A stretch of DNA of 54,936 nt, filler included, from Sphacelaria rigidula (GCA_964200075.2; 5 parts of 5 records of this genome joined end to end with filler, not necessarily neighbours in it); one strand, 5' to 3'. Positions 1,002 to 51,539 are shown, counted from the first letter of the whole stretch. The notes: generated from the sequence alone by a model not told the origin. Made by a program: numbers and translations.

Positions 1002-1122
1002 GGGGGAGCACCCAGTAATCATCTTGCATGCCGTAGTCATACTGTACGACCATTCACCTAGCATCCCTACAAAGTTGGGGTGAAGCATGCCGGGTCCCCG
1101 CCGGACCAGGCTCGCAATCAAT
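1002..1122. repeat. G-tract-associated structured short repeat, long variant
   Basis: Homologous to 32815-32922 and 34845-34955 (tcttgcatgccgtagtc...gaccatt...gcatccctacaaag...gccggg....gccggacc); ends in CAATCAATCA. Confidence 0.75.
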
Positions 1123-1346
1123 CACCGAGCGCGAAGCGCCGTGACAACAGCACCAGCTAGCAGGGTTCACAGGCACGCGCTCGTCCCACGTGCTCGACGC
1201 GCGTGATCGACGCGCGTGATGTCTAAAGAGGGGAGTTCGTTCCGTTCGTGTCTTGAACTTTTGTACCTCTTGACTCAAGCGTATCCCTGAACACTCGTAC
1301 GTCTCCTTCACCGACGATACTCGTTCTCACCTGTATCAAACATAAG

Positions 1347-11008: not shown

Positions 11009-11072
11009 AGGGATGCGTGGTCGAGGGTCAAACAACTAAGGCAAGCAACACATGAGAACGCCCCCCCCCCCC
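11009..11072. repeat. G-tract-associated structured short repeat, short variant (opposite orientation, cut by gap)
   Basis: agggatgcgtggtcgagggtcaaacaactaaggcaagcaacacatgagaacg plus poly-C is the reverse complement of the 35776/39367 type. Confidence 0.7.
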
Positions 11073-11443
11073 TCCCCCCTCCCCTGTAATTATGTTGGTC
11101 AAAACCACACCCTGACCCTGGACGATACATTTCTTATTTTCGATAGTGCAGGCAATACTCGTACATTTCTTGCCGACGAAATTCTGTCGGGCGCACCCCG
11201 TCGGCCACCTACTTAGCGGCCATCTAGGCCTCCACTATTGCCACTATGCATCAGCGGGACTGTGAGATCTGCCAGTTTGTCGCGGGCGTTGGAGGGCCTG
11301 ACCGTTTGAACGCCAGGGTGAGAAACTCTTGAATCAGAAACACAGCCACCCTCCAGTTATTGTAGTAGCCGCCCATTCATGGGGATATATTTTTGCTTCT
11401 TGTAGTGAAAACATATATTCAATGAGTCAGGGAGGGGATATAA

Positions 11444-18760: not shown

Positions 18761-19560
18761 TTATCGGGCAGAGACAGTTTGGCGTATTTCGGGCAGATAA
18801 CTTTTTGTTGAATCCGAGAAACACGAAAGGCGTTGGTACCACAGCATATGAAGTGCGGCGGTGGATGAAGAAGGGAGAGGGTGTTGGATGCCGAGACGGA
18901 CGGAGTGAGTCATGTTTCATGAGGATCCTGGATAATGGTTCACCGGCTCGACATGCGCTCTGAAGGAGGCGGGGGTGAGGGGGTACTCATTGGACCGTTG
19001 ATCATGCACGCATCCATTTCGAGACGGGGGGGTATCGTTTCTACCCGATCTGAGCTGGGCGGGGAATTCATGTCTGAAATCCGAGAGACATGGATTATTT
19101 GCACGGAAAGGGAGACAGTTCTTCGGGGCGTCCTTAGTTTTGTTGCTGGTGCGGAGCTGCCTTTGCCTCGTCGGACCGACCGCGCGCATTTGGTTTGTGG
19201 CCACGACGGGCTTCTGACCTCTTGGCTGCAGGATTCGGCTACGTGTTATTAAGCGTGAATTGAGGTCGGCGTACGTACGTCGAGTGAGGGAAGTGTGTCC
19301 TGGGAACGCTCATTATCTCATGTTTTATTTCTCGCACGCAGTTCTGCCGAGGCGGTTGTTAAGAATCGTACCGTAGCCTGCATACACAGTATCTTGGAAT
19401 CCATCTAGTTAGTTTTCGTTTGTTCGTTTTTCCATTTTTTTCACTTCCGCGTCGTTTCCTTCATCAAACATATGATTTTTTCTTGCACTTGATCTTTGAG
19501 ATCTCAAATAGCTGTGATGCCAAGCGCACACTACTTCACCTCCTCTCCTCTCTCGCTCAC

Positions 19561-21027: not shown

Positions 21028-21037
21028 AGTATCTACG

Positions 21038-25507: not shown

Positions 25508-25635
25508 TATACCATATATCATATACCCTTCAAGTCACATTTTTGCTGAAAAAGCTCCATATAGGGTATATGATATAAAGTTGTGAAAAATATCATTTCA
25601 TATCATATACCCTCCGAAAAAACATGACTAAGGTA

Positions 25636-25946: not shown

Positions 25947-26248
25947 TATATGAAATATCGTATAGTATAGGGGGGTATTTATAGGCCAGGGGTATATCTA
26001 TACCAGGCTCTACCCGTACCCATGAACTTGGTGCCGTCTGGCTATCAAAGCTCTCATTGAGAGACTGTCAAGGACAGGAGATTTACTCGGTCAGTTTGTT
26101 TCAGAGTGCCGCATGCATCGCATTCAGCCCCCAGCAATTCGCCAGTGGTGCACTGGATTCTCGACGACGGAAAATCAAAACGTGTCTGCCTGTCTGTCCG
26201 TGTGTCCGTGTGTCTGTGTGTCTGTCTGCATGTCTGTATGTCCACGTC

Positions 26249-27355
26249 GAGGGGCCCCATATCGGGAAATCCATGCACCACCGCTACCCGCGGTTGAGAA
26301 TGAGGAAAATGCTAAATCAATTTGGGAAAACCTTATTCTTCCTATTTCTCCACTAGCATGCGGAATTGAAGGATCATTTAGATATCTCCGGGTTCGCGTC
26401 AACATGAGCAGCCCAAAACCGAGGAACTTTGGTGTGTCAGGAGTTGTTGTGGTGACAGGACATCAGGGAGCAAATTTGCCGCTGGAAAATGACTTTGAGT
26501 CGCGGCGATCACTGGATAATGAATATTAAGTCCCGCTGGCTTTTGCAAGACCGGTTGTTACCGACCTGGCACCTGGCACTACCGTTGTTCCAGTGATACG
26601 ACCGCCAGCCTGAGGAGGGCGATGTACGACGAACAGTTCTGTACTGCTACTGAATGACTGAAATATATATGCAGTAAGTTGACTGTGCGGTGTTACCAGC
26701 CGATACGAGAATGTTATGATATTATACAAGAGCACAGTATGTGAGGTGCACGTGATCACGTACTTTGCCCGCATTTGGGCAGACAGCCGTGTTCATACAA
26801 CGCGTACATCTACATACAGCATCGCAATTTACATTGCATTGCGACACAAGAGAGGGAGAGGTTGCAAAGGGGAATGTTATGGCCATGGTGTTGCGAAAAA
26901 TAGTATCAAACATTACGATTGCGGCAGTCATGAAATGTAAGGCGATATCATTATTGTTGTGCCCGCAAGCGCAGATCCATGCCAACTCCTGGTCGCCAGG
27001 CGTGCGCGCCCACTTCACGTTAACCCCTTGCAAGACTCCTGGAATCTGGGGCACATTTCCAGCGCCGGTACCTTCAGCGCTTTGATCTTCACTCCCTGCT
27101 TATACGGACATCTTCTCTATTTGCTTCAGCTTACCCCTACCACCTACCGTTTCGGTACACCCGACGCAGGCCGACGTTACCCGCAAACACGTGCGGTGTA
27201 GTACAGCAACTAACTACTATCGCCATCCTCCAGCGATCGGGGGGTACCCCCCCGTGGAATCGGATACCCCCCCTCCCCCCCCCCTCCAACCCCAGAATGA
27301 GGTTTTTGCGGCGAGGGGGGCGGTGGTGCATGGATTTCCCGATGTGGGACCCCTC
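26249..27355. mobile_element. Non-autonomous TIR DNA transposon, 1.1 kb, 3-bp TSD GTC
   Basis: 36-bp TIR GAGGGG(C/T)CCCA(T/C)ATCGGGAAATCCATGCACCACCGC; GTC on both sides; inserted in a (TGTC)n tract. Confidence 0.85.
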
Positions 27356-29451
27356 GTCTGTGTCTGCAATCTATACCAAGCTAGTACAATAACAGTAGTA
27401 GTAGTGTCTATCTCCGTCCAACTCATTCAGTGTTGAGGCCTAACCGTTACCAATCATTCAATATTTTTAGATCTTGTTACCGCTCGCATTTTACTCACAT
27501 ACGACAACGGGTACCGACAGCCATTACACAAGCGCACGGCCTTGGCCAAATCCCATCTCCTGGGGTAGCATCTGTGTCGACTTTTCACATTTTACTGAAC
27601 TATCTATCCTAAGGGTTGGTATTATTCAGCCACGGACCACCACGTGAATATGCAGCACAGCCATAATATATCACGCGCCTTTTCATCGTGTGTGCCGACG
27701 CCTCACACCCGATTGAACTTCCTCAATCGAGTTTCCCAAATATCAAATTGGTAAAGAATGACTCACAAAAACAACCACTTACGCAGCTTTGATATTGTCT
27801 CGGACGATATCACCGAACATTTTTTGTCTCTTCAACTTTGACGACTAAAACGACTATATATATATATATATACAGTAGTATTATGCTATAATAATACAAC
27901 GTCGTGTAGAACAACCATCACCATGCGAACCCTCGGCCTGGGTTGGTGTTGACTTGTTGTCATCATGTTGTTGAATAGACCAAGTTTAATCGAGGGGGGT
28001 ATTGGATGAGAAATTCACGTCCCGACCCCTCCGCGGCATACACGGGCTACCAACTGCGCTGTCTATGTATATGCATTAATACAGCCGTTAAGGTTAGTCA
28101 TTATTATTAATTACGAGCTGGGCCAGTCGCAAGGCTCCGTCGCCTCCGTCCACAGGCCTGCATGCGCAACGCAAGTTTTCGCATTTCGAGGTGAGATCTT
28201 CCCAGCAGAGGAACAACACATAATGCATAGCAATACACTTTCGAGATCAGACCAACTCTTAATACGTGTCTTAGCTCATAATTAGTTTTCCATCGAAATT
28301 GTGCGGTGGAGAACAAAACCCCCGATATGACAGGTCGTAATTTCAACCTTCATCGTTAATTTTAAAGATGGTTGAAATCATGACCAATCAGATCGGGAAT
28401 TTAGGAAACTGTCAGAAACCTCATCACCTGAAGGATATTGCTGAGAAATGCAAGATTGGCGAAATGAAAAAACTGCCACCAGTGGGGCACGCAAAGTTGC
28501 GCGGTTCGGGCGAATCATCGCCGGTTTGACTAACCGAATCCAAGATTTTCAGGCCTGATAGCTTGAAAGAGCAAAAAGTTGACCGCTGGTCAAACAGGTT
28601 CCCACGCCATTTTTAAGCCACCCCAGGTGCGTTTTCTTCGTGAGGTTGAGAGTTGAGCGTTGCACCCTCAATGTTTGGAAAGTGAAGTATAAGTCGTTCT
28701 CAGGCGATATGGATCGCTTGGCCGTCTTCTCACCCGAATAATGCTTCCGAAAGGCTAAACTTTTCGCCCTTTTTGGTCGGTTTGGACTGTGGTCGCCAAA
28801 CGAAGTGATCTCATCCCTCTATTTCTTCATATACTTCGTACATCAGGTCGATCAATGAGGAAAAAACAGCGAAGAAAAGTTGGGAAAATACATGGAGGTA
28901 CAACATGCACATAACCTATCACTATCCTTTAGTTGTAAGTCGACACTCTGAAAATACAGCAGATGAGATGCGTGATGGTGCTCAAATGTTCGGGGTTGAC
29001 GGGTGAGGTTCCTTGTGTTCCCCATGCATGGTCACAACCATGTCGTGCCGACACTTTTTACGATACCCCCCCCCCCCCAAAAAAAGTGCCTGGTTTGCGG
29101 AGGCGAAATCTTCACGTAAATCGAAATGGAAAAAGCCGGTGGGGCACAACGAACAGATTGGAATCCCTACGCTTGGGTTCTTTCTCGCCAATATCGCCCA
29201 TGTGAGGCGCTACATGCACAGCCTGAACCCAAACATCAGGCGCTACATGATCATTTTTTTCGTGACACTTTTGGGCTGGTTTTGGGGGGTGGGGGGGTAA
29301 TCGTAGACAGTGTCTGCCATGAAATGAGTCTAGGGTCGATTGTAACGCCGCCAAAAAAAAAGCAAAGGGTGAAGCAAGCCTTCAAAATCAGGACGTTGAT
29401 TGGTCGCCGCGATATCATTGCTTCTTGATTTTGGTCTCCTCCAGTTATCCT

Positions 29452-29731
29452 GAACCTCAGTTCGTATTCCCAAATCCATGGTTGACAGTTGCTTGGAAGT
29501 AACGCTGACCTCAAATTCCCCCCTCACCCAAGATGCAACCCTCGGGCAAGGGCGGTGCAAGGGGCGCGCTGGCAGACCTCAAATCGGCGCAGGCGCCGAT
29601 TTCGACAAGAACGGACTCTGCGCACACAAGGAACACGAGGGAATGCCGGCCCCATCAACGATCGGAATCTCGGCGATTACACTGACATCAAGTGAGTTCC
29701 AAGAGTGGATTTGGGTATACGAACTGGGTTC
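29452..29731. mobile_element. MITE of the shared-core family (different TIR)
   Basis: TIR GAACCTCAGTTCGTATTCCCAAATCCA vs GAACCCAGTTCGTATACCCAAATCCA; core gacctcaaatcggcgc...gccgatttcgacaagaacg. Confidence 0.75.
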
Positions 29732-31398
29732 GACGCCACTACGTACCATGATCATCGCTAGGGCCTCGGCCGTGTGTGCGAAGTAGAAGACATATATCAA
29801 GTGAAGAGAGGCTGGATGTCGTGAGCGAACGTCCCTCTTCATCCTCGCAGCATTTGAAGTATGCTGAGTCACGAAGGACACGTGCACATTTCTGCAACAC
29901 AAGCGCAACATTTTGGGGGCGAATCCTTACACGAACCTACACTTGAATTGATCCATCGCTGCACAAGGAAATACATGAGCGCAATCTGAAGCGAGCCACA
30001 GCATTCGCTTGCTTGTCCACATTTTCACCCACATACTTTCATATTTTTCAACATTTTCCCGCATTGACAACCAAACACGAAACGAAGAAACAGCAACAAA
30101 CGAAACGCATCACACACAGTAAAGTGAACAAACACCACAGCATGGCACACTCGAGCAAGGGACCCACCACGTGGCATGCAGTCGCTCTAATCCACCATTC
30201 GGGGATGAACCCGCGGTACAGCGTACATATACATACCGCAGATACCCTGTACGTGGCCAAGAAGTGCGAACCTCTTCATCTGCTCCCTTATAGCTAGTGA
30301 TACCAGACATTCAATGAGATATCAAGCCTGCTGTAGTATCGTTCGTACCCGCATGGCTACAGCTCCAGTTCCCAACACACAACACCCTTTCCCCTACCCT
30401 GACCTTGCGACTTCCAAAACCTTCCACTTGGCATGGCGGTCCGTAGGGACAGATGCACCATGTGGGGGTGAACCAATCAGCCAACCCAAAACGAGATTCG
30501 CGACGCGATACGAGAGGGAGTAATAGCTTCGTGACGAAATTGACATGCTATTACGTAAAATGCGCTGAACTGAAAAAGACTGGGTCCGACGCATCTCACG
30601 TCCTGCTCAGGCTCGTTTCATGCCTAGAACCAAAGAAGCGCGACACGACGAATGCCCTCCCAAAGGGAATACGGCCAAGCAGAAAATGGGCAAACCCCTC
30701 CAGTAGACAGGTATGTACTCGGAAGTCGCACGGCATAACGCCTGAGGGTGAGAACACATCTCAGAGACAACACACAACATTGGCATCAACATTACCAGGG
30801 GTCGGACGAAGTATGGCCGGTTCCCATCACTAAATCTGCGATTTGAGTCCAAAGAGAGAAATAGCTTCGACCGCGGGTGGAAGAAGTCTCGACGAAAATT
30901 CTACGCTACTCCGCATTCCTGGGGTGCAACTTTGAAAAACAAAGCCCAAGGATTTATTCGTATGTACGAATGAATCAACAACACCACAAGCGAGTTATTT
31001 CCAGACGAATCTCCATTCGTCCGACCTTTGAATACTATGTACACATTCCAGAAATAGCTGCGGAAACCGGCCAACTTATCGGAAACCTCTCCGCTACAGG
31101 CCCAGACACGTCAGTCGATGGACCTCCTGTGGTGACCCTGGCAACGAAAGCATGCTAGCGGCACCTCAACAAAGCCAGCCGGGGTGTGTTGGGGTAGAGG
31201 GAATACCCGAGCATTCACTCTCTCGAACTTCGCGTCACGATGGTCCGACCTATAACCTTCACGTAAATACTGGGTGAAGTTAGGTACGATGGCAAATACT
31301 CTACCCCAACATCTGGGGGCTGTTGAGTACGATCTCGATACTCTACCGAAGTACTGGGTGCTCAGGCCGGATGTTATGGCAAACAGATTCTTGGCCCG

Positions 31399-31816
31399 CG
31401 GATTGTTCACTTTTTGGACGTTTGATCCACTTCTTGACCCCCAAACAGGGAAAATCGCCAACACACGTCTCGTACACTCTGCATCACTCCACGCAGAGAA
31501 GCCTAGCTTACTTTTCAGATTCGCTGGGCTCTGAGGTTTCGAGTTTGGCTGCTGAACAATAATCCAGGTGCAATAATTTGTGCTTGCCAACATACGGCAG
31601 TTTGTCCAATAATCTGTGGAGATCTCCCTAGATTTCAGTGCACATGGATTATTGTTCAGTGGCCACTCTCGAAACCTTGGAGTCAAGCGAATCTGGAAAG
31701 TGGGCTGGCCTCCTCTCTGCGGGGTGATTGATGCAAAGTGTCCAAGACGTGTGTTGGCGGTTTTCCTTGTTTGGGGGTCAAAAACTGGATCAAACGTCCG
31801 AAAAGTGAACAATCCG
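31399..31816. repeat. Long inverted repeat / foldback
   Basis: Arms 31399-31572 and 31639-31816 are largely reverse-complementary around a 66-nt spacer; weaker pairing extends to about 31180/31880. Confidence 0.9.
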
Positions 31817-32766
31817 GCTTCAGAGTACCATTTTTCAAAATACTCGAGATGTACGAAATATTCCACCCAACACACGCTTGAAAGCCGGACTCACCGCGCT
31901 GCGTTTCAAAAGTATGCACGGCGCCGATGCGGGTGCACGATACGGTAAGCCCCACGCCAATGCAGGCATGGACTCCACGTGCGACAATATCCACAAACAG
32001 CTTTAACGTGAGCAGACACCGTCCTTTCGTCCTTGGAAAATGACGATACCAAGGAAGAAGACACCGAAACTCAACCCCCTCTTCTCATCCTGTTCCTATT
32101 CCGATTTCAAAAAGAGAGGAAATGAAGCCTATCGCCGACAAAAGAAATTCGGAACAAAAAATGGAAGTCCCTACGAACAAGACGTTAAACAATCCAACAC
32201 GATCGGAGAAACAACGAAGGAAAAAACTTCACGCGAACGCTCCGTCACACACAAAGAATCCGTTTTGCGCACAAGACGTCGTTAGAGCGCTTGGCAAAAA
32301 CTTCCAGGTGCATAGACAAGATATATTGGACATTGAACGAGTGATCTAGATACGCTGGGCGGGCCCAAAAAGAAATCTTGGTCCCCAAGCAGAAACGATT
32401 CAGCACTGAGTCATGCGAATTTACACCTAATTTCACCGTACTCCACCCGAACTAACTCTTCGGCTCCTTACGGCTAGTTTCGAACATCTCTATCCACGAA
32501 GGGCCATGCCGCACTCTAGTAACCACCCTTCGTGAACGTCACGTCGTAGTCGGGGTAAGCCGCACGGCACATGTCAGCTACACGTGGCAGGTCGGCCGGA
32601 CCGAACTGCATGCTGTACCTGTCGAAATAAAAACGACAGGGTCATGGGAAGAAAGCCAGAAACACACGAGCGAAAGGGGCAGGAAAAAATAGCTGAGTAA
32701 ACAGGATGTCGAAAAACACACATATCATGGACGCAAAATCGCAAAAATATACCAAGGTTAAGAGAA

Positions 32767-33080
32767 GGGGGGTGTACCCATTTGTTGCTTGCTCTAGTCG
32801 TTCGACCAATGACTGGGGGGTGTACTCATGATCAGGCATGCCATAGTCATCAGACCAATGACCTCGCATCCCTACACAGCCGGGACGGAGCACGCCGGGC
32901 TTGCGCCGGACCAGCCTTCCACNNNNNNNNNNNNNNNNNNNNNNNNNNNNNNNNNNNNNNNNNNNNTTAATTAATTAANNNNNNNNNNNNNNNNNNNNNN
33001 NNNNNNNNNNNNNNNNNNNNNNTTAGTCGTGTGACCATTGACCACGCATCCCTTTCGAGACGGAGCAGAGAGAGGGGGGA
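32767..33080. repeat. Cluster of three G-tract-associated structured repeat segments spanning a gap
   Basis: Short-variant 5' half at 32767-32814, long variant at 32815-32922, short-variant 3' half at 33023-33066. Confidence 0.75.
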
Positions 33081-33214
33081 GAAAAAACATTATCCACACA
33101 TCACATGTGAAAAGATGTAAAAGGAAAGAGAAAAATATGTAGGCGTGAACATTCCTCATCTAGTTCGTTTATATTATTTTCGATCAGTCTCTGCTTGACT
33201 TGATTATTTTCTTC

Positions 33215-33580
33215 ATTGAATGATTGTCGCACTTCAATTGACTCCCTAGGGATCCGGCCGTGGTGACATGATAGACGTACCCGAGACAAAACAAAACTGA
33301 CACACTCGCTCAAGAAAAAAGAAGGAACATAAAAGGTGTAACTGAAGAAGATAGTAGACTAAAACGTGAAAACCAAAGCATGAGAGAAAAGAAAAGGAAA
33401 GAGAAAATAGCCGGTCTTTGCCACATGACGTACTCAAGAATCGAAACTCCACTCCAGTGAAACATCTACATGTGCATTCATGTAAGAAATAGTAGAAGTA
33501 GTGACGGTACTGGGAAGGCGAGTCTACGTTTGTGACCATGGGTTCGAGAGATCGGGCAAATGTGCAATTCCAATTGCACA
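33215..33580 (-). mobile_element. RTE LINE 3' UTR fragment
   Basis: Reverse complement gtacgtctatcatgtcaccacggccggatccctagggagtcaattgaagtgcgacaatcattcaat, and tgtggcaaagacc, both match 48400-48615. Confidence 0.7.
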
Positions 33581-34002
33581 TGTGTGTGTGTGTGTGTGTG
33601 TGTGTGTCTCCAACACTTGCGCTGCTTGGGAACCCGGCACATCATTCACCGTAAAGACGAAGAAAACCAAGAACACACAGAACCTGAAGAAACAAAACAA
33701 AACAAACAAAACAAACAAAAGAAACAAAATAGTACTTTTTTTTTCTTTAATTCCGTTTTTTTTTTGTCAACACCACCCTACAGCAGCCTCTCTCCTCAAC
33801 TAACAACCCTCTCACCTTGCAAAGCTTGCGGACCTTCTCATAGCCGACACCAAACACTTTGCCATCCCGGAACGTGAGATAAATCTGCTGCTCCACCTCC
33901 ACCCGTTCGCCGTTGGGTTGATACGTCACTACACCGAGCACGTCAAAAGCGGAAGAGGGGCGAGATCAAGAGGCACTTTTTTTTTCCAAGTCGAAAAAAA
34001 CT

Positions 34003-34322
34003 TCCAAGGTTGTGTTTTGTAGGGTAAGATTTTTTGTGCATCCGGGTATTTGCCGGATGTTACCCGTAGCCGATAGTTCTGTGAGTTCTGCAAGCCTCTC
34101 ATACCGGTACCCGACAGTTCTGTGATATCTGTACGAAACATTTACCCATACCTGGGGTACGGGTATACCCTTGTAGAAATACCTCGGCACAGGTAAGAGT
34201 TTCTGTACAACTTCCATGCCGTACTCGACATGTTCTGTAAGTTCTGCAAGATTTCCGTACCGGTACCCGATCGTTCTGTAGGTTCTGCAAAAAACTTGTA
34301 CCCTACCAGACACAACCTTGGA
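34003..34322. mobile_element. MITE with internal tandem sub-repeats
   Basis: TIR of about 34 bp: TCCAAGGTTGTGTTTTGTAGGGTA vs TCCAAGGTTGTGTCTGGTAGGGTA; internal gttctgtRRgttctgcaa / taccggtacccga repeats. Confidence 0.8.
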
Positions 34323-34844
34323 TGATCACGAAGCAGTGACGGCAGGAAGACGTCAGAAAGAAAAAAAATTATGGCTGTGTAGCTGCCCGACATTACCTCC
34401 CCTCCCCCAATACACGAAAAGTGCTAGTATACACACGAAATGGAAATGTTGTTCATAGACTCGGGATTGTTTGCGCCAAAACAAATTTATTCCATCAATT
34501 TTCTCGATTCTTCATTTTTCATGTCATCTAGTGAGCTCGCCGTTCCGGACCCCAGCATACTGAAGCCAACTGACACTTGGTCAAGTAATGTCAACCCCAA
34601 AACATCGCCAAATGTGGGGGTATTTCACTAAAAAAAACATTTACGTCAGTTGTAGTCAATCCATTGGGATAAGGGAAGACGTCGTCATCCGTTATACGAG
34701 AAACAGAAATTGGCAAATAAATACTCCGGAATAGTTGGTACATATTCTACGCAAAATGCTTCATACCCGGGTGAAGGGAAGGTTGTGCGGTGAGTCCACC
34801 GGTACCATATTACTCCTAATTTAGTTGGTAGCTGGGTGACTGGG

Positions 34845-34955
34845 CCGGGGGTGGGGGGATCATGATCTTGCATGCCGTAGTTATATGACCATTGCCCTCG
34901 CATCCATACAAAGCTGGGATGGAGCACGCCGGGTTTTCGCCGGACCACGCTCGTA
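34845..34955. repeat. G-tract-associated structured short repeat, long variant
   Basis: Homologous to the 1002 and 32815 copies. Confidence 0.75.
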
Positions 34956-35427
34956 GCGAGGAGGGAGGGGAAATGATACATAGATCGACCTCCCAAACGA
35001 ACGGATGTGTTGGAGAGGACTATCTTGCACCTTTCATAGATTCTAGATGACAACAAGGCACTACACAGTGCTGCACTCACTGTATTGTTACATCCAAGCA
35101 CACGACCTATTTGGACCGCGAAGGCGACCTGATTAAACTACTCCAACACGTGGCCAAGAACTTTCTTGATCCTCTACATCGCAATCCACATCGTATAGTT
35201 ATTTATTTATACTGATTGTATCCACCAAAATTAGGTACAGTACCTTGTACAGGGTCACCACTACAACTCTACAGCATACATACAACCATGCTTTACTACC
35301 AGACGGCTGCTGTTACAGGTCATAGCCTCCCGTCAAAGTCACTTTTTGCTCTCTTCGGTTTCTCCAGCGTTCACTCCAGCAGGTGTACTTCCCTCCGTGT
35401 GTCCACTTTTGAGGTACACCTCCTCTC

Positions 35428-35487
35428 AACACGGCGGGATTCGAAGCGGACCCCTTAATGTGCGATAAATCCGTCAATCAAACCAAT
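35428..35487 (+). mobile_element. LINE-type 3' end
   Basis: acacggcgggatt...atgtgcgataaatccgtcaatcaaaccaat after a pyrimidine-rich tract. Confidence 0.45.
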
Positions 35488-35775
35488 GTACCTTTTCTAG
35501 GGCACACGACTGACTTACGTGTCCAAAATCTTTCCTCCCCCTCAGGCAGTTCATCCGTTCGCAGCGGGTCCTCATATTTCGGAACCACCAGCTGCGGTGG
35601 GTCAGAGGGCGACGCTCTTTTCAGGAATCTCTTGCTGCAGATGAAGATACGAAGAAGAAACGAATGAAAGGCAACGACAACAAAAAAACAGTAGCGAGTT
35701 GACCAACTCCTCAACGCCCAGATGCTTTGTAGTTGGACTTCAGTTACTTGGACTTCAAGAGAGGAGGGGGGAGGC

Positions 35776-35862
35776 GGGGAGTGTACTCATTTGTTGATTG
35801 CTCTAGTCGTTTGACCATTGACCACGCATCCCTTTCGAGACGGAGCACCCGGGGGGGGGGGT
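35776..35862. repeat. G-tract-associated structured short repeat, short variant (best-preserved copy)
   Basis: ggggagtgtactcatttgttgattgctctagtcgtttgaccattgaccacgcatccctttcgagacggagcacc followed by a G run. Confidence 0.8.
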
Positions 35863-36799
35863 TCGGAATCGTCCTGCCGGAGGAAGAGGCAACGCCCACG
35901 GACAGACGAGAGGTGGCGCATCGACAGCAACCGTAATTGGGGTAAATGAAGGTCTGGCGGATGCAGCTATCGTGCCGTTACAGATCCGGCAGCACACTGT
36001 GCAGAATGATGCATCGAAGACGATCCATGACATTTGTCCCCCTCGACCACTGCATCCAGATGATTGGCTGATCGGTTTTACGACGCATGAAGTGATTCGC
36101 CAATCCAGCCGGGGTCACAAGGGTGCCAAAAGATCCAAGTAGAATAATTCTCGCCTGCAGCCTACACTACGGAGTCTTCCTCAGCATTAATGACTTCGCA
36201 GAACCCTCCACAATCTGTTGACATTGACTCCCCCCTGCACGGCTACAGCCACGCCAACTAAATCGGAACAGTTAGCATGGGCTCCCAAACGGCCAATCGA
36301 CTCGGCGCCAGTTGTTGTGCCCATTTATGTGTTGAATCAGCATCGTTTTCACTTGAAAAACGACGATCAGACCCAGTTGTCAATCTACGAGCGCTCAAAA
36401 GGAGTGGTTATTTATTTCGACACGTAGGACGACTCTCGTCAGTTGTACGGGTTGACGCCTCGCGAATGTCGAGTGACAGTTGTGAGCCAACGTGGAGTCA
36501 CTGCGGGCGTATCCGTGTATGTATCACACACACATGAGGAGAGGCAAATGCATGTCCGCAGTAGTATCGCACGAATTACGAGCGGGATTCTGTGCAGCAT
36601 GACTCGTGTAAAATTTGAATATGGACGAATGAGTCATGACAACAACAAATCAAGATTGAGCAAATATGTACGACCTCCTTGTCCGAATCTATGCGATAGG
36701 GGGCGGATATTCTTTTCCTTGTTCTAATTGAAGCTACTACTACCTACTATTGCCATTACCAACGCAAATATTGGCACATATTTGGGCCGGGACGAGATC

Positions 36800-37063
36800 T
36801 ATCTTCCGATTTTCTCCTTTTCTTTCTTTTCTTTTCCTTCTCTCAACTCTTCCTTTTTTCATGATCTTACTTTTCGCATTCTCCTGTATACTCCATTATT
36901 TTTCATCTCTTGCTCTCGCTTTCATGTTTTCCCTTTCCGGAGTTTCCTTTGGCAAGCGTGTCCGTTCCATTCGCCATGGATGCATCCAACCCATAAATAC
37001 TTGGGATTCCCGGGGAAACCATTGCGTCATGTGCGACAAGGAATCAATCAACCAATCCAATCA
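36800..37063 (+). mobile_element. LINE-type 3' UTR with (CAAT)n tail
   Basis: T/C-rich tract ending catgtgcgacaaggaatcaatcaaccaatccaatcaa. Confidence 0.45.
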
Positions 37064-37602
37064 AGGAAAATAAAATCAACTATATATTGGCAGACACACA
37101 CTACTCACCTATTTGGCCACTTGAAGCTCTCGGACGTCACAGGCCTCTTGCTTCTGCACATCTTGTAGCAGCAGCAGAACACTACATTTTGGGACAGCGG
37201 TCAACAGCGGACACGCACAAGAATGCACTATTAATCAACACACCTCCCCCCGTCTACCTCGTACATACACATACCTGTCGAACGCACAAATGTGATGGGG
37301 TTTCCAGACACCCCGCACGCCAACACGGCATGCTTCGACCCGCTCTACTGACTTGTCGGGGTCCCAACAAGTGCACCTTGGTAAGGACGACTGCCCAGTG
37401 CACATGTACATCGCCAAGGGACACATGGGCAACGTTCCTGTGCTGTAAAACTCTTGTTCCCCGCACAAGGATGTTGACACTTCGCGGATCTTAGAAGTAC
37501 ATGATCAAAAGTGTTCCCGCTCGGTGTTCCGCTGAAGCGATCGGATAAGGCCATCGACCGAGGTGAAATCGAGCGACCTCGTTGATCCTTCGACAGCGAG
37601 CT

Positions 37603-37950
37603 TCAAACCGGAACAGTATCGCCGACTGCTTGATGGGGTGGAGGGGAGGGGGGGGAATCCTGAGGGGGGAAGAATGCGGGTCCCCAGCTCCGAGGGCGTG
37701 TCAGAATGGGTACACCCGACATTGTTATATTTTGGAAGTCGCACATCACTTGCCCGAGTCGGTCACAATGGTAACAGCGCTGGGCTGGCTGCTGCTGTGG
37801 CCATGAGTCGGATCTCCACTCTTCAAAATGCCAAAATATAGACTCTACCCTACCCGACCTGCCCATGCCCAGCTCAATCAAAGCACCTTCCACCATCAAT
37901 CATTAGGTTTCCAGGGATTTGTTCTTCAGGTCGAGCAAGGGGTCCAGTAC
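37603..37950 (-). pseudogene. Decayed gag-like fragment with degenerate zinc knuckle (possible LTR retrotransposon relic)
   Basis: CYHCDRLGQVMCDF fits CX2CX4HX4C with H to Q (CAA) and C to F (TTC), each one base from consensus; in-frame stops upstream; Pro-rich downstream. Confidence 0.35.
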
Positions 37951-37967
37951 CCAGTATAGTTTGCTAC

Positions 37968-38270
37968 TTGGGAAGGTGCTGTGGATGTTTTTCAGTTCGA
38001 CTTGATTTTAGTGTGGACAGCGAAATCCGGATCTTTGCTGAGGCTGTGCTCCAAGCGTGCTCTTGACGTGCATAGAATGCGTTTTTGTCGAAATCGGTGC
38101 CTGGAGCGCCGATTTGAGGGCTGGCAATGCCTACGTTGCCTAGGCACCAATGTGTGCCTCCTTGCCCGAAGGTTCTTGGCGTGCCTTCGTTGGGGTTAGG
38201 GTTAGGGTTAGTGTTGGTGTTATAGCTTGTTCGAAATCATAATTTTTCGAGAAATTTCTCACCTTTCCAA
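37968..38270. mobile_element. MITE of the shared-core family carrying (GGGTTA)3
   Basis: Core gcgccgatttgagggctggcaatgc...ttgcccgaaggttcttgg matches 51680-51760; GGGTTAGGGTTAGGGTTAG at 38193-38211; short TIR ttgggaaggtg/cacctttccaa. Confidence 0.6.
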
Positions 38271-38894
38271 ATGGTAATCTAACCTCGTACTCGTACAACC
38301 CACAGAAAAAGGACAGCCCAAAAACCGTAGCATTCGAATCGTTTCACAAGGAACGAAAGGCTGGTGGAATTCGCCACGAACGGTGATTGAGTCCGCAGCA
38401 CTTGCGGCCGTGTGTGGAGGGAGACCATACAAGTTGTCGCCTACAGGTAAGCCTCAGTGTGTGGTGTCACATTCGGTGGGTGCCAACTCAGAAATATCAG
38501 CTAGTGAATGTCAAGGGCATAACCCCCGCTACGTGAGAGTATCACAAGACACTTACAGTCAGTCACGTTGGGCGAATCTCACGAGTTTCTAGAAATAATC
38601 ACGCTGAGCATCCATATCCAACTGGCGTCCACTTGCGCCACCCCATGTCTACATATCATCTTCTACACCCTGGGACTGTAAATTCCTTTTCCCGTAACAG
38701 TGTATGGTAGTTGGACGCTGAGAGGGTCATGCCTGGCACTCAGTTACTTTTCGACCCCTTGGGCGCCAGATGGTCCACGTCGCCCCGCTATCGACCACGG
38801 AAAATATGTGAAAAACAAAATCTAATTCTTTTATGGAATTCTTTCGGTATCAAGCATCTCCAAGACACTGACAAATTGTACTTAGCTGAGAACC

Positions 38895-39255
38895 GCCGGT
38901 CGCCCCGGTGGCTGAGTTGGTAACCTCGAAACCTTCTGACGGTTGGGTCGTGGGTTCGAATCTCGGAGCGGTCTGGGATTTTCCCCCACACAGTGCTCAA
39001 CAGTGGGGAGCGATCATGTCGTGGGTACGCCAAATTCGACTCAATGGTCGACGAGGGAAAGGGAATGCTGAACTCCTCTCGCGATAAACAAAGAAAGGTA
39101 AGCACCGTGCAACGACGATCGTGAACTACAATAAATCAAAAGAAAAGTGAAGAACTCCTGCGTTGGCCTTCCTCCTGTGTGACCCCGACTGGTGCGCCCA
39201 CATATACCGACAGGTCTAGACCGGCGTCCAGAATAGATGGGACAACACAACACAC
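38895..39255 (+). mobile_element. tRNA-derived SINE, full length
   Basis: A box TGGCTGAGTTGG, B box GGTTCGAATC, shared body, tail ACAACACAACACAC. Confidence 0.9.
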
Positions 39256-39366
39256 TTGGCATGTTTTCATGCAGTTATCGTTGGGTTTCTCCTTCTTTTC
39301 ATCCAATAGTTGCGTCTCAGTACCGGCTCATCAGACCCGCGCACGCGTGGAAGGTTGACACAAAAT

Positions 39367-39457
39367 GGGGGGGGAGGTACTCATTTGTTGCTTGCCTTAG
39401 TCGTTTGACCATTGGCCATGCATCCCTTCCGAGACGGAGGGGGGGGAGGGGGGGGGC
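39367..39457. repeat. G-tract-associated structured short repeat, short variant
   Basis: gtactcatttgttgcttgccttagtcgtttgaccattggccatgcatcccttccgagacgga between two G runs. Confidence 0.8.
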
Positions 39458-39969
39458 ACGGATCGGCCATCGCTTACTTACTCCTTGCACATACACACCA
39501 GTGCAGCGTGCGTCAGTGCAGACAGATACCAAATAGTCACCCTCATGCAGCAGTCTCGTTCTAGCGTACAGCCACCGTTGGTAGGACCCAGAGATGAAGT
39601 TACACGATCTGCATTTTCCTCGTTCCCTTGCACGTTCAACCCCTCCCCTTCCTGAAGACGAGTCCGTGGTTCTGAAGGGATCAACCCATCTCCCCCCGGT
39701 ACATTCCTGATATCTCGCCATCGCGGATTGGATCTTGACCTGCACTACCGCCGCTTGGACTCTCGTCAAACGAACTATCTTCGCTGCTCACGTCCTCCAG
39801 CCTTCAACGACGAGAATCAGATACTGTACTTCAAGGAAAAAGCCAAATGCATCTGGCAGGGATCGCACCTGCGTTCTTCCCACCCTAATGGTGTCCGTCA
39901 GTTGCACGATCAGACAGACCAACGGGGCACGGCGGCGTATTTGCAGAGTAGATATGAACGCAACCTACA

Positions 39970-40026
39970 AATGGCGCTGTACAAGTACTGCGGTAATGGC
40001 GCTGTACAAGTACTGCGGTAATGGCG
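39970..40026. repeat. Perfect 25-bp tandem duplication
   Basis: AATGGCGCTGTACAAGTACTGCGGT twice, followed by AATGGCG. Confidence 0.9.
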
Positions 40027-40269
40027 GTGCTATCGGTCCATACGAAACGCCGTGAGCTTGGCCAAACATAACTTCCGCTCGGACATTCACATCCTTATTT
40101 TCCCGTACTTTAAATTGAAAATGCCATCGACGGCTCCTTCATCTCCGCACCGACATTGCAGCAGAACCCCAACAATGTGGGCGTGTACCGTGGGATGACC
40201 GTGGCCTCGTATTACTCTTCCCACCGTCATAACCCAAGCTTACTTTCGGCTAGCGGGGCCTGATGTGTA

Positions 40270-40451
40270 CTGTGCTGGAAGTGTGCGTTGGCGGACCTCA
40301 AACCGGCGCTTGCGGCTCCGATTTAGGACGAAAACACGTTCTGACGAGCTAGGAGCACTCAGGATTGTCAGCCCCTCTAAAGATCCGGATATCGATGTTT
40401 CCTCTGAAATCAAGTAAAATCAAGTATCAACCATTATGTACGGTCTATGGG
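40270..40451. mobile_element. Partial MITE of the shared-core family
   Basis: gacctcaaaccggcgc...ccgatttaggacgaaaacacgttctgacgagct...gaaatcaagtaaaatcaagtatcaaccatt parallels 11540-11695. Confidence 0.65.
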
Positions 40452-40691
40452 TAAGGTCCATGTCTATTGTTGTAGACACCCACGTGACTCGCAGCGTGTT
40501 TTTGGCGCGCGAAAAAGTGTCCGTCCTCAACCAAATGGCTGTTCGCCAAACAAGTTATCCCGAACCCCCGGCTATACGAGTGGAGGGGGGGAAAAAATCC
40601 TGCTGACCGCTAGTTGGGCCGTTCAGGCACCCAACAGATCCCCCCCTGCCGTGTTAGTTTTATAGTTTTGACCAATAGGGTTGCAGCTTAA

Positions 40692-40789
40692 CCCTTGGAC
40701 CGCGAACGTAGTCCATCTGGACTAGGCATACTTTTTTCAAGTGAAATTGATGCCGATTCAACAGATTGTCTACTCTCGCCGTCCAAGGG
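40692..40789. mobile_element. 98-bp piggyBac-like MITE
   Basis: TTAA|CCCTTGGACCGCGA...TCGCCGTCCAAGGG|TTGA. Related relics at about 14495-14556, 23265-23370, 36330-36360 (reverse) and 43765-43820. Confidence 0.7.
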
Positions 40790-43700
40790 TTGAGGGCAGG
40801 TTGGGGCTTTCGTAACACGGGCCTCCCGAAGGCCCGGCATCCAACAGCCATTGATGGAACGATGAAAGAAAAACTTCGTGGGAGGGACAAGTTCACCGCT
40901 GCAGTATGTGTGTGTGTGCGTGTGTGCGTCGACTTGTGTTTCTTATCCTCGGCTGGACGTTGGGAATGGGGGATAGAATTCTCGGAAAACCTCCAGCCCA
41001 AAATCACAGCAGAGCACCACTAAACCATAACCGTAGACGCCACCTGGAGCATGTACACCCCCCACCCACCAAGTGCGCCCCGCCCTTCGGCTGTTCCGCA
41101 GAAGAAAAAGTTTAGCTATGTGTCTTGGCCGCATCTATGAACTAACTACTGTTTTATACGGTTTCAAATTGTGATGCTGTATGGCAATGCGGCTGGCCTC
41201 GGCCTGAGCACAAACACAAAATTGTCTGTGCTATATACGGTGCGCGCGCATGTGCGTGGCATGACAACGGATTTTTCTGCGCAGGCGTTGCCTCGTCACC
41301 GACAATAGCTGTTTGGGACCTTCGACTGGAGAAAAAAAAGGGGGGTCACGGTGCCGCGGGGCCCCGAAGGAGCTGATGCAGACACACTATACAGTGTAGA
41401 AGCCTTGATTGTATCATTACACTTGCGGTGAGTTCATGTTCAACATTTCACTGGAAGACAATATTTTTTTCCTTGACAAATCAATGCAGACCCAGATGAC
41501 CTACAGTGCACTGGAGTCGAAGGAAGAATCAACTGTGCTACTATACAGAAAGGATATCGCGGAAAGGGCGGAGTATTCCTGGCCGTTGACTCTAAACCAA
41601 GGGCAGCTTTCCTCTCAAATGGTCCAGGCCCCATCGGCGCGCGTACTGGCTGTACATGCGCACCAAGATCCGCCCGGTGTTGAGAGTGCTGATCGCGTGA
41701 GTCGCGACGACAGGCTGCCATAAGACAACACATCATTCTTCAAGGACAGCTGTGTAATCCCTTCGGGGACAACGGTCGCAAAAGTATGTCTACGGTGCGT
41801 GCGTTCCTTAGACGGATGAAAGGACATTCAGCATGTAACGGTACATGGGTAGCATGGCGGTTGCTGGATTTTGCTCACGTGCTGCTGTGAGGTACTGTAT
41901 CTAAAACCTAATGGCAAGCTGGGCATTGGCAGCATTTGCACATTTGCACATGCTTCTTCAAACGCCAACATGATGACAGACGTGGAGTGGTTGCTCGTTG
42001 CTTTATTGTTGTATTGCGGTGCTACCATCTACCGCGCGGTGGTGTCTGTGGTGCCACTGTACTGATTATGCTGTACTCACGGGAATGCGCTGGGCTCGGT
42101 GACTCTATACTCAGAACAGATTTTCTCGTGACTCCAGTTGACCCAGCGCACCATAGGTACTGACCTACGGCAGTGGTACTCTTCAGTGGCTGGGTGAGAA
42201 AAACTCACCGCATATGATACAGCACAGGGACACCGCCACCACGATGACCAAACCATATTCGTTGTTAACGATGAAATCCTGCAGGAGGTTCAAGCAGCTC
42301 AGGAGAACATTGCCCATCTTCCGCGCTGATCAGAACTCAGAGCCCCTGCACCTGGGTGAACAGACGACGCCGTCGCCGTCGATTCCACAACTCGGGGTAT
42401 CTGTTATAGAAGACTCTGGAGTTACGCCCTGGCAAGATCTTCAAAAGAATAGTTCGGCAGAGAAGGGAGTACCGTTTCTCGGAGTTGCGGGGCCTCGCTT
42501 CTCGAGAGCAGCAAGTTAGGATTCACGAACTACACGTACCCACACCCGACGGGTGTTATCCTCCGTAGGCGACCACTTGGTATGATATCTGGACACCCAG
42601 TTGGCCACTGCGTTGCGGCCGAACCTCGCTCGATGTGCGGTCCGGCTTTGTTGTGTTGTACCACTCAAACCCACAGCCGATCCACGGCGATCCTCTCCCA
42701 CCCACCAATTCCCTGGTTTCGCTTTGTCGCTTCCCTGGTGGGCTTCTATGCTGGTATGGGGCCAGGGGTAGTCCGTTTGCGTGCGCGCCAAGGGCAGGTA
42801 ATCCTACAGGGAACGAGATTGTCCCGGAGCCAACCTTGAAGCCGAGAAATATATCCTTGACTGGTGTTCACCCTGCTTGCAGCAATCTCTTGTTGCACAC
42901 AGCAGGTCGCTATTGACTATATGATCACTACTATTTGTGTGTGCAAGGGGCTCTCCAGCTTTGAGAAAGAGAGCAGACCTGGCTAACCACTGCTGTCCAG
43001 CTGGAGCAAGTACCGGTCTGTCCTTGTCTGTATCGTCGTATTGTCTGTTCTGATTATGATTCCAATATCTCACATGCGCTTCATGAGCAGACCCGTGGTG
43101 AACTTCAAGTCTCAGTATATCTTCAGCCTCAAGAAGAATAATGCTTTATGGACAGATCGCGCCTTGGGGGTTGTCTACCACGATTTGTAGTCCACTAATA
43201 CCCTCAGCTGCATATATACTGCTGTGATCGCAATAAAATGTCCTCCCTCTCGAACTTGCTGTTCTTTTTTTTTGATGATGCTATAAATTCCGAATTTCAT
43301 GATTATAATAATAATGGGGTCATGATACACGACAGCATCTTGTTCACCACGACGAGTGCTTATCGTACTTCAGAATAGTAGTATACTACCGTATCATTAT
43401 CGAGGAAAAGGAGTAGACCACAGGTAGACTTTTGTGCATGTACGAGCCGCGCCGGCCGAGGCCTCGTCGCCGCAGGTCGCAGGTCATGCGCGGCGCAATT
43501 TTTCGAATTTCTGGGTGAAATTTTGACACCTCGGAGAGACAAAAGGGATACGTTCATTTGGCTAAAAGTCGCCGCGGTTGTTGAGATATGATTTGTGGAA
43601 GGAATATCCGTTTCATCACGGCGACCCAGCTAGTAGACACTGGTACTGTCTGGATGTGTTGTTCAATAGTCGATGCGCGATGATCTGGGGGCTCACAACT

Positions 43701-44289
43701 TGGCCGCCAGGGCGGGTCAGTTGGGTCTCAAATAAATTCTTCGATTGAAAATTTGATCATGAATGAATAATGATGCCGATTCAATAAAAAATTGACCCTA
43801 ATCGCATTCAAAGGGGTTAAGCTCTCCACAATATTTTTGTGGGGTACAGTACAGTACCGGCCCGCTGGTAAGAAACGCGTCAGTAAGAAAATCAGCCTCA
43901 AGTTTGAGACAAACTTAAGAAACGGCCCANNNNNNNNNNNNNNNNNNNNNNNNNNNNNNNNNNNNNNNNNNNNTTAATTAATTAANNNNNNNNNNNNNNN
44001 NNNNNNNNNNNNNNNNNNNNNNNNNNNNNCTGTAACCGTAAATGCGATTTCAGCCGTTTTCCCCCCTAATTCCGCGGCACATGCCACCCTCAACTCTCTA
44101 CACTTCGCAGCTGACTACAGTTTGGTATTTCGTTTGAGGGTAACTCGTCAGATCGCAGTGCTAGGTGAAGTGAAAGACGCGCGTTGTTTTGCAGGTTACC
44201 ACGATGTGTCACAGTAGGCACAAATCGCGATAGATCGTCAGTTATACCCGGCTGAAGGAAAGTCCACTTCTTAGGCGACCCAGCCTGTA

Positions 44290-48615: not shown

Positions 48616-49997
48616 TCAGGTTAAATCCATTTTTCTCCGCCTAATCGGATACTGTATATGTATATAGTGAGCCTAACCTGTTATTATCATGTGCTTTTTG
48701 ATACTATGGTTGTGATATCCTGTATATGCCGCACCATACGTTACATCGAAGACCTTGGTAAGAGGCCTCAATCTGGAATCTTGACAATCACAATCGTCCA
48801 TGATGTTTACAAATGGCCGAAATAACGACATTCGGAAGTTCATCTGCCATACTGCACAATCCAGGTGCTAACCTTCTGCGGAACATTTTCGTGCGGATTT
48901 AATGTATACAGAGTACCGGGGAGAGATGGGTTGATCCGTTGAGACCACGGACTCGTCTCGAGGAGGGGGGGGGGGGGGGTCCCATTTGTTTCCTGCCCTA
49001 AGCCTTTTGCCCTTTGCCCCCCCTTCCCTTCCGGGCGGGGCCCCCTTTCCTCTCCNNNNNNNNNNGTTTGCGGGACGCTGGGGTTGCGGTGGGGTGGATT
49101 CGCTTCTTAGGAGGGGAGGGGGGGGGGGGGGGGGGTTAAAGTGCGACAAGAAAAAGAAAAAAGTGCGAATATTTGAACGACAGTATTCACGCAAAGCAGC
49201 AGCGTCCTCCTCTCTGATTTCGGTCGTTTTGGGACCCTCTCACATGGGATATCTCAAATCGGTCCGCAGTCAAGCCTTTGTTCTGTTTCAGACGGCACAG
49301 AATCACAGCCACTTAGATTCGAAATCGTTTCCTTCTCTTGTCTGTTTCGCCTTCCCCATGTTCAGCAATAGTCAGGACTCTCACCTGCATGGTAACTACT
49401 GCTGCAACCGACCACGGTCTACTAACAACCAAAAGGCCTGCACGGGCGAGTGGTTGCTAGCTGCAATATAGTCACGTCATGGCAAATCACCAGTGAGCAC
49501 TACCGTCGACTTGAAGCTCGATTTATAGTTTGTATGCGCGACCAAATAAAATAGCTCTGAAGTTGAACACATCAACAGTGCCACCACTTCTCGGCTGGAC
49601 ATTTGGCGAACAACATGGTATTCGCAGACTACCTCATGACCACGTCTCGCTCCCGGTATCATGTCTGTACAGCAGCGACGGCGTATGTTGAGATTATGTG
49701 GTCCACGTCAAGCATCGTGTCTACGGCCACAGTGCGTGTCGCTGCTGTCATGTTTTGGCCACAGAGGGCGGGATGGCCGGGTAGGCAGCCAAAGCACGCT
49801 TCTCATCGATGGGCACGTATGCTCACAAGGCATCCGTCGCTTGTTTGGCTTCTCTGCATATACGAGATGCGGTCGGAGGGTGGCACAAAGGAATTCTTGC
49901 GTGCGCCAATGAAGGCTACTGGCAACCGCTAAGACTGGAGCTAACCGTGACGCTGCCTACTACTGCGTACGCTTTTAACATTGGCTGCTCGGAGTAC

Positions 49998-50066
49998 GGG
50001 CATACTCATTTGTTGCTTGCCTTAAATCATGGGGCCAAGATCACGCATCCCTTTCAAGACGGGCGG
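49998..50066. repeat. G-tract-associated structured short repeat, degenerate short variant
   Basis: tactcatttgttgcttgccttaaatc...cacgcatccctttcaagacggg. Confidence 0.65.
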
Positions 50067-50707
50067 ACAGACGGGCGGACGGGCGGATGGGGTATACTTC
50101 GTTATTGCCGTGTCAGTCGGTATTTGCGTGTTTGCCCAGCTCTGGTGTGCCCTTTCCCCTCGTTGTGACATGCACTGTACCCACACTTTTGCGATCTCAG
50201 TACTTTCGGGGCAGTGCTGACAGATCTCGTGCATGCTTTGATGGTGTACTGAATGTCACCTCGTATCAACTATGCTGTACCGTACGGACTTCCTTCACGA
50301 GCGGCCGAAAACACGATACAGAACAAGGAGTGTATCAGTAACTGCCGCACGCAGTTCACGCTGCAGCTCCAATCTCTGCATCGTGTTCTATACCAGCGTG
50401 AATCCATTTCGACAATAAAACAGCGGGGATGAAGGTAGAAAAGACGGCGCAAAAAGCAAAGAACACCCACGTTTTCTTGTGCTTGAATCGCGTAGCAATA
50501 CTCGTACGTCGCTACAGAAACAGTTCAAACACACAGCTTAACCTCCGAGAGAGGCGAAGATGGTCGATCTGCACGAGAACATTGTGTACCATTTGGCCAG
50601 GAAAAACGTCGCAACGGCCACTGACCTGCCTGAGGTTTCCGTTCGGACCAGATTTTTACTGAAAGCACGTATGGTTGACCTGCGGAGCTTTTCGGTTGAT
50701 CTGGTAA

Positions 50708-51391: not shown

Positions 51392-51422
<31 letters not shown>

Positions 51423-51501: not shown

Positions 51502-51539
51502 TAACTCGCACTATCCATTCCTTTCATCAGTAGACCTCA

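Follow-up and report, generated by a model that had tools for sequence, protein, structure and literature searches.

The short repeats dispersed in the DNA analyzed here, a stretch of 54,936 nt from Sphacelaria rigidula (hereafter the window), are very probably the 3′ ends of a poly-C-tailed LINE (family A), together with those of a second element that shares its 3′ module (family B). The 87-nt finding at 35776-35862, previously put forward as a candidate structured RNA or ribozyme-like mobile element, is for the most part the end of a coding sequence followed by the tail of this LINE. The evidence comes from the copies in the window, from an intact ORF that runs into the module in public contigs, and from the sequences that continue beyond the module in public sequencing runs.

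Repeat copies in the window

The window joins five contigs of about 10,907 nt each (1-10908, 11009-21915, 22016-32922, 33023-43929 and 44030-54936), connected by spacers of the form N44-TTAATTAATTAA-N44 at 10909-11008, 21916-22015, 32923-33022 and 43930-44029. The earlier note had listed nine copies of the repeat. Blastn searches using the best copy and a long-variant copy as queries recovered all nine places and also 48962-49045 and 18984-19027, two copies that had not been listed, which brings the total to 11 (Table 1). Five near-complete copies and the structure proposed in that note were used to build a covariance model, which gave 13 matches with E ≤ 0.02, 10 in the window and three in public contigs. 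Those in the window cover eight of the nine places, the ninth one as two matches (32776-32821 and 32822-32893), and 48978-49043; the copy at 18984-19026 has a model E value of 0.43. A 33-nt core, searched with at most 3 mismatches, occurs three times in the window versus not once in 100 shuffles.

Table 1. Copies of the repeat in the window, with their scores and their matches to the sense strand of the intact LINE copy L124
Position	Strand	Type	Score (bits)	L124 sense match	Details
35757..35862	-	Family A; the 87-nt finding	96.1 (E 1.1e-25)	5085-5165, 90%	C11 run at 5′ junction, 35851-35861; 66-nt LINE 3′ module, 35783-35848; C-rich tail, 35757-35782
39367..39456	-	Family A; 5′-truncated at nearly the same point as 35757..35862	77.4	5089-5161, 92%	C8 tail (plus-strand G8, 39367-39374); C runs at 5′ junction, 39439-39456
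33023..33067	-	Family A; 3′ part lost at contig start	46.7	5087-5131, 96%	G-rich plus-strand run beyond 5′ junction
11009..11084	+	Family A, opposite orientation; 5′ part lost at contig start	20.1 (E 0.003)	5101-5164, 91%	C12 and C-rich tail, 11061-11084
32762..32813	-	Family A; only last ~47 nt and tail	29.5	5112-5158, 85%	C6 tail
32815..32922	-	Family B; cut by contig end	48.4		Module with 9-nt loop 1; upstream CCGG-CGCAAGC-CCGG hairpin
34845..34953	-	Family B; 5′-truncated at 34953, where other genomic copies go on	29.9		
1002..1145	-	Family B; longest in window	18 (E 0.014)		1018-1114 matches 34862-34953, 80%; C5 tail; 9-nt loops in both hairpins; CCGG-CGGGGAC-CCGG hairpin; CAATCAATCA... 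extension
49998..50068	-	Divergent family A-like; different hairpin-2 region	36.9	85%	No C run
48962..49045	-	Degenerate; absent from earlier note	33.2	74%	C15 tail; beside N10 gap
18984..19032	-	Short, internally deleted; absent from earlier note	12.9 (E 0.43, weak)	74%	Between G runs

The description that had been given of the copies proved accurate on several points. G runs lie beside them, as seen in the copy sequences and in the homopolymer count, the sequence quoted for the best copy is exact on the minus strand, and the copy sequences show the listed loop variants and, in the long variant, the 5′ CCGG...CCGG hairpin. As had also been stated for four stem positions, G-U or U-G is the commonest combination at four of the 17 pairs, and some copies have G-C or A-U there.

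On the C-flanked strand, which is the sense strand of the LINE (see below), a C or C-rich run follows GAGTAC in the copies and a second C-rich run is found at the 5′ junction in most of them; the tails of the window copies are C5-C24 or C-rich. As regards target-site duplications, the C-rich sequence found on either side of the copies in the sense orientation obscures the limits of any exact duplicated word. In the sense direction, the copy 32762..32813 immediately follows the tail of 32815..32922, in a head-to-tail arrangement. Three of the eight inner contig ends lie inside LINE-tail copies (those at 11009, 32815-32922 and 33023, which are cut there) and one (22016) in a G run. Assemblers tend to break at high-copy repeats, which would account for the LINE-tail copies cut at three contig ends.

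Runs of at least 7 nt amount to 18 G runs and 14 C runs in the window. A sequencing artefact was considered as the source of the G runs flanking the elements and was rejected since the same C runs are found in independent public contigs; this rejection concerns the element-flanking runs, and the G27 at contig start 22024 may be such an artefact. Homopolymers of C or G of 12-27 nt without any adjoining element body were also observed at 14119-14130, 29066-29078, 49118-49135, 51398-51422, 51929-51940 and 22024-22050. Such runs may have arisen as insertions of the tail alone, may be favored targets of the LINE or may be partly due to sequencing artefacts.

The LINE, its ORF and its tail

Public contigs were searched with a core pattern and true copies were then judged by blastn. 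The metagenome scan gave at least 119 stretches, with two true copies among those listed (L031 and L058), and the scans of viral and genome contigs gave four stretches, including one true copy (L122, whose whole contig of 5259 nt is L124). In all three (L031, L058 and L124), LINE sequence continues past the 66-nt module; beyond the G run, L031 and L058 share 89.6% identity along 1071 nt. A frame of 351 aa (P0001), whose 5′ end is open, is present on the C-flanked strand and ends with ...AACAAATGA within the module; the frame end reads ...GAPSRKGCVVNGQMTKASNK-TGA, and the stop precedes the C run by 7 nt. On its own, P0001 gave no Pfam match, being located C-terminal to the RT domain. Its longer relatives include P0003 (1360 aa, 86% identical), which harbors RVT_1 and Exo_endo_phos domains. 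The sole relatives of the ORF assigned to a named organism are two unnamed Ectocarpus sp. proteins, which are 70% and 47% identical to its 351 C-terminal residues.

The contig L124 carries a complete version of this gene. P0003 aligns with it at 88% over residues 1-1360, in a 1382-aa frame devoid of stops, and the ORF, single and intact, encodes 1333 aa from the first ATG. Its product has an RVT_1 domain (E 6.7e-32, 111 bits for a cut-off of 29.6; E 9.8e-31 for that of P0003) and, N-terminal to the RT, at residues 192-436, matches to Exo_endo_phos (E 8.1e-11) and Exo_endo_phos_2 (E 1.4e-07). Its best relatives of solved structure (PDB) are LINE-1 ORF2p and R2 proteins. Family A is an APE-type LINE with a single ORF encoding endonuclease and RT and with a poly-C tail. 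The ORF encoding the endonuclease and RT domains enters the element on the C-flanked strand, which is therefore the sense (RNA) strand of the LINE. The earlier proposal of a mobile element that is copied through a single-stranded RNA is thus supported, and the strand chosen for it, the C-flanked one, was right.

L124 ends with ...AACAAATGAGTACG followed by C12, and the tails of L031, L058 and L124 are C8-C12 after GAGTACG. The protein tail APSRKGCVVNGQMTKASNK, or a close variant, was found by a motif scan in 26 of 157 related proteins. The family A module thus contains about 20 codons from the end of the ORF, together with the TGA stop and the 7 nt that precede the (C)n tail. When L031, L058 and L124 are compared, their last 66 nt have the lowest divergence among 16 non-overlapping windows (summed differences of 4, versus a mean of 16.8), and 39 of 997 overlapping windows are as little diverged.

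Comparison of L124 with the window by blastn gave 10 matches, all of them included in positions 5074-5165 of its sense strand, i.e., in its last 92 nt. Likewise, the tblastn matches of this LINE in the window, with P0003 as the query, are limited to the 17-20 C-terminal residues of the ORF product, at 35790-35849 and 39384-39434. The module at 35783-35848 holds the last codons, GAPSRKGCVVNGQTTRAINK, and the TGA (tblastn with residues 1341-1360 of P0003, 85%). Every copy in the window is a severe 5′ truncation of the LINE. The evidence for the full-length LINE comes from the three public contigs and from the contig consensus described below, the window itself being devoid of a full-length LINE.

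Two side observations concern L124. This intact eukaryotic LINE (L122-L124, G001:C43) lies on a contig filed in a prokaryotic metagenome-assembled genome, presumably a contaminating algal contig. Furthermore, upstream of the LINE ORF, at 4741-4799 (+ strand of the locus), a weak match to the tail module was detected in the opposite orientation (11.5 bits, E 1.1), which may be an older inverted insertion marking the 5′ boundary of the LINE.

Abundance of the family in public sequencing contigs

Nine public runs, none of them recorded as RNA and one labelled an algae metagenome, contain part of the region 34000-40000, and the contigs of four of them (X3-X6) were aligned to the fourth contig of the window. 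The summed contig depth in X3, which is not a copy number, is 3.3e5-9.3e5 in the bins that hold copies versus 9-44 in repeat-free bins, which shows that the repeat family is very abundant. Behind 35849, 698 (X3), 556 (X4), 218 (X5) and 93 (X6) contigs diverge from the window (consensus agreement of 0.56-0.69). Their divergent consensus is the sequence found after the module in L031, L058 and L124; therefore, in the source organism too, many genomic copies are longer fragments of the LINE. Before 39367, the consensus consists of the G run and then, upstream, of non-conserved sequence, indicating that the element ends there. Eight X3 contigs join 35847 to 34860 with a G run between them, and joints of this kind point to head-to-tail arrays elsewhere in the genome.

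Family B, a second element with the same module

Three copies (1002-1145, 32815-32922 and 34845-34953) match L124 in the module only (sense 5086-5158). Upstream of the module, they have the CCGG...CCGG hairpin and an extension beginning with CAATCAATCA..., which is common to other genomic copies, as found in 156 (X4), 90 (X5) and 37 (X6) contigs behind 34953. Family B has 5 more nt in loop 1 than family A and, therefore, the two families read the nucleotides that they share in different frames: GGGATGCG.GGTCA.TGGTC reads G-C-V-V-N-G in family A and, in the frame keeping the preceding A-P-S, R-D-A-R-S-L-V-stop in family B. This means that protein coding is insufficient to explain the nucleotide conservation in both families. 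Family B is a second element, in which this ~70-nt 3′ module sits on a body of unrelated sequence. The search for family B gave no stretch in viral contigs and no match in genome G001, its peptide was not found among the 157 related proteins, and neither translation nor tblastn detected a LINE-like protein upstream of the 1002 copy. Most likely, family B is a non-autonomous passenger that uses an enzyme of the family A type through the common module.

Predicted fold of the 3′ module

The earlier note had proposed an RNA fold specific to the C-flanked strand. When isolated, the 66-nt core folds on the sense strand into the proposed closing stem and two hairpins (MFE of -17.3 and -17.1 kcal/mol, z of -2.0 and -1.8, with 9 of 200 shuffles folding as well in each case), and the antisense strand folds poorly (z of +1.0 and +0.4). 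The boundaries of this isolated core were chosen to fit the fold. The comparison of the strands rests on MFE folds, the energy of the mirrored antisense structure having been discarded as it scores non-standard pairs. With the natural flanks, z ranges from -0.64 to +1.44 for the sense strand and from -0.68 to +1.95 for the antisense strand. The strand-specific fold is thus recovered for the isolated core, on the sense strand only, but its stability signal is gone once the natural flanks are included.

Indels between copies fall in loops. In the model-fitted alignment, 90.2% of the cells are paired versus 87.9% after shuffling (reached by 13 of 500 shuffles) and the covariation score is 0.127 versus 0.097 (reached by 8 of 500), these fractions not being probabilities for related copies. 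One cell of the two hairpins is changed on both sides; the other two-sided changes lie in the closing stem and are due to the forced alignment of truncated or degenerate copies. RNAalifold found compensatory changes at none of three pairs in the model-fitted alignment and at none of 14 in the cleaner set of eight copies, sequences that are too alike to give power. Regarding one-sided changes in the two hairpins, seven cells keep the pairing versus six that break it; by our own reasoning, such similar counts are what transition bias in dead copies would give. That the structure is conserved beyond the sequence was not confirmed, as neither the alignment nor RNAalifold provided compensatory covariation.

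The stems are plausible as predictions. As conserved 3′ modules are recognized in stringent-type LINEs, the module is, by analogy, probably a cis signal recognized by the LINE protein. The exact three-helix fold of the earlier note may be the one that the RNA adopts, although we would rather lean against it.

Proposed insertion mechanism, 5′ ends and alternative explanations

From what is known of LINE biology, the following mechanism can be proposed. The LINE would be transcribed and its protein would bind the 3′ module of the RNA, of which the predicted hairpins are a plausible recognition structure for the enzyme. The endonuclease would nick a C/G-rich target, the nicked G-rich strand then priming on the C tail. 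Reverse transcription would mostly abort early, leaving short “dead on arrival” copies that are C-rich on both sides, and new copies would often land in the tails of old ones, which would generate head-to-tail arrays.

The seven 5′ ends of family A copies that lie inside the window correspond to positions 5085, 5087, 5089 and 5091 of the L124 sense strand and to 5074, 5077 and 5112. Four of the seven are thus clustered within 7 nt (5085-5091), which simple random truncation does not predict. This clustering could possibly result from microhomology of the G-rich cDNA end with C-rich targets, from stalling at the hairpins or from a template RNA limited to the tail. The last of these causes corresponds to another reading of the ~80-nt family A copies, namely a discrete “tail-only” mini-retroposon whose short RNA, produced by processing or internal initiation, would be mobilized in trans by the LINE enzyme. 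All seven family A copies with a 5′ end inside the window begin in the last 92 nt of the LINE, the four clustered ends are at the foot of the closing stem, and the isolated core folds as noted on the sense strand; furthermore, a very short non-autonomous partner of RTE-X elements, RTEX-N2 (188 bp), is described in Ectocarpus (PMC12477816). However, this concerns seven copies only, their 5′ junctions are not identical, and, at two of these junctions, CTCC of the element may have microhomology with a C/T-rich flank, which would cluster truncations without any discrete RNA. Moreover, many genomic copies continue into the LINE. We therefore regard such a mini-retroposon as unlikely. A more specific combination, in which the module is a true RNA recognition structure laid over the last 20 codons of the ORF and the template is a ~80-nt tail-only RNA with a defined, perhaps processed, 5′ end, seems quite improbable; if true, it would explain the clustered 5′ ends and would place this ~80-nt unit among the smallest retroposons known.

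Truncated LINE and passenger 3′ ends remain the preferred explanation when set against the two readings of the earlier note. One of them, a new self-cleaving ribozyme or free-standing structured noncoding RNA carried by a mobile element, would fit the sense-specific folding of the isolated core, the confinement of indels to loops, the GNRA loop of hairpin 1 in family A and the clustering of 5′ ends at the base of the fold. Nevertheless, the family A module is the end of a conserved ORF, RNAalifold gave no compensatory pair, and the stability signal vanishes with the natural flanks. Besides, Rfam searches gave no match in the whole window at the gathering score, and the five matches with E ≤ 10 in 32700-35950 include no ribozyme and overlap no copy. 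With a module that is mostly coding, no Rfam family over the copies and no compensatory covariation, the ribozyme-like element is not supported, all the more so since a LINE 3′ end explains everything, and we consider it very improbable. The other reading, a tRNA-Ala-like SINE on the G strand, is in our opinion hardly credible at all, and so is the end of a MITE or DNA transposon. The G strand, with GGGGGTGTA..., faintly recalls a tRNA acceptor and D arm, and a true tRNA-derived SINE family, unrelated, exists elsewhere in the window. Yet the LINE ORF lies on the other strand, to which the G strand is antisense, no tRNA-like gene is called by ARAGORN in the window and no tRNA match is given by Rfam, the earlier note had itself recorded that a B box is lacking, and the copies agree at their tail end and differ at the other, as expected from 5′ truncation and not from two defined termini. 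In addition, no terminal inverted repeat was seen by eye in the copy sequences.

Comparison with known elements

A 2025 curation of Ectocarpus TEs (PMC12477816) describes RTE-X LINEs such as RTEX-1_Ec32 (“single EN-RT ORF; (C)n 3′”, with a “C-rich” TSD), of 5.5-5.9 kb, and two related elements: RTEX-N1, a 607-bp non-autonomous element that is the most abundant family, with “60 bp 3′ end 83% RTEX-1/RTEX-2”, and that “can be present in tandem”, and RTEX-N2 (188 bp), with a “similar 3′ tail”. The other LINE groups tabulated there have (CAA)n or (CA)n tails. As far as these descriptions go, family A resembles RTEX-1_Ec32 and RTEX-2_Ec32 by its single EN-RT ORF, its (C)n 3′ tail and its C-rich flanks, the Ectocarpus curators likewise giving the TSD only as “C-rich”; the elements of the window also resemble RTEX-N1 and RTEX-N2 by a very abundant partner that shares only the last ~60-100 nt and by their tandem arrangement. 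However, they come from another organism and form another family, whose nearest Ectocarpus protein is 70% identical, and they are likened to RTEX elements by their descriptions. Furthermore, the intact copy is shorter than the lengths published for RTE-X, the start of its ORF being ~4.1 kb from the tail in a 5259-nt contig where the 5′ end is undefined. From these common features and the Ectocarpus protein relatives, we infer that the family probably belongs with the RTEX-N elements and RTE-X LINEs of Ectocarpus.

The repeats represent, in another organism, a type of element that has already been well described, namely an RTE-X-like LINE with a poly-C tail and its likely passenger; they are ordinary transposon debris and not a new RNA gene. 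The short G/C-flanked repeats that break the assembly at three contig ends should accordingly be annotated as LINE and passenger debris. For transposon biology, the interest lies in a 3′ module located inside the ORF, in two families that keep this module in different frames and in an isolated core that folds on the sense strand only. The module would be a compact candidate RNA signal for RTE-X enzymes; the main text of the Ectocarpus TE study (PMC12477816), in the parts considered, does not mention any stem-loop, hairpin or secondary structure.

Other known systems share some of these features. “Dead on arrival” LINE copies generally have a common 3′ end and tail and a varying 5′ stop, as here. 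Unlike the usual ones, the copies of the window show an extreme truncation (all ≤92 nt) and clustered ends, and they are flanked by C runs and not by an A-rich target. Ribozymes are known in retrotransposons, either HDV-like at the 5′ ends of LINEs or as hammerheads in Penelope-like elements and retrozymes. The module likewise would be a structured RNA, here a predicted one, in the transcript of a retroelement, but it has a 3′-end and coding position, no Rfam ribozyme match and no identified catalytic core. The eel pair UnaL2/UnaSINE1 belongs to the stringent-type LINEs and their SINEs. In two other stringent-type LINEs, ZfL2-1 and ZfL2-2 of zebrafish, the ORF2 protein recognizes a stem-loop of the 3′-tail RNA that is common to partner SINEs (PMC4176376). 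As in the stringent-type LINEs thus described, an autonomous LINE has in common here with a second element a short conserved 3′ module that precedes a simple-repeat tail, and hairpins are predicted, in our case on the sense strand only. Unlike in these LINEs, the module lies over the end of the ORF and not in a 3′ UTR, the tail is a C homopolymer and the fold is devoid of covariation support.

Other elements in the window

Few genes are recognizable in the window. None of its five ORFs of at least 200 aa has a Pfam match. Among the 83 of at least 110 aa, one (46878-47399) has a weak RVT_1 match, below the cut-off. This match belongs to a degenerate RT fragment of a different, distant LINE, found at 46532-47105 (+) with 28-41% identity to P0003, P0004, P0006 and P0007 (tblastn).

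The Ectocarpus TE curation (PMC12477816), in the part considered, reports no SINE with a known pol III head. In the window, a tRNA-derived SINE-like family of ~360 nt was observed at 38895-39252, 21038-21398 and 11833-12062 (+) and at 1-74 (-). Its head contains an A-box-like GGTGGCTCAGTTGG and a B-box-like GGGTTCGAATC, and ARAGORN calls no tRNA in it; its bin has the highest summed contig depth of the fourth contig (1.03e6 in X3). Finally, TTAGGG-like repeats (GGGTTAGGGTTAGGGTTAG) are located at 38162-38221 and 51740-51799, inside another dispersed repeat family (D19).
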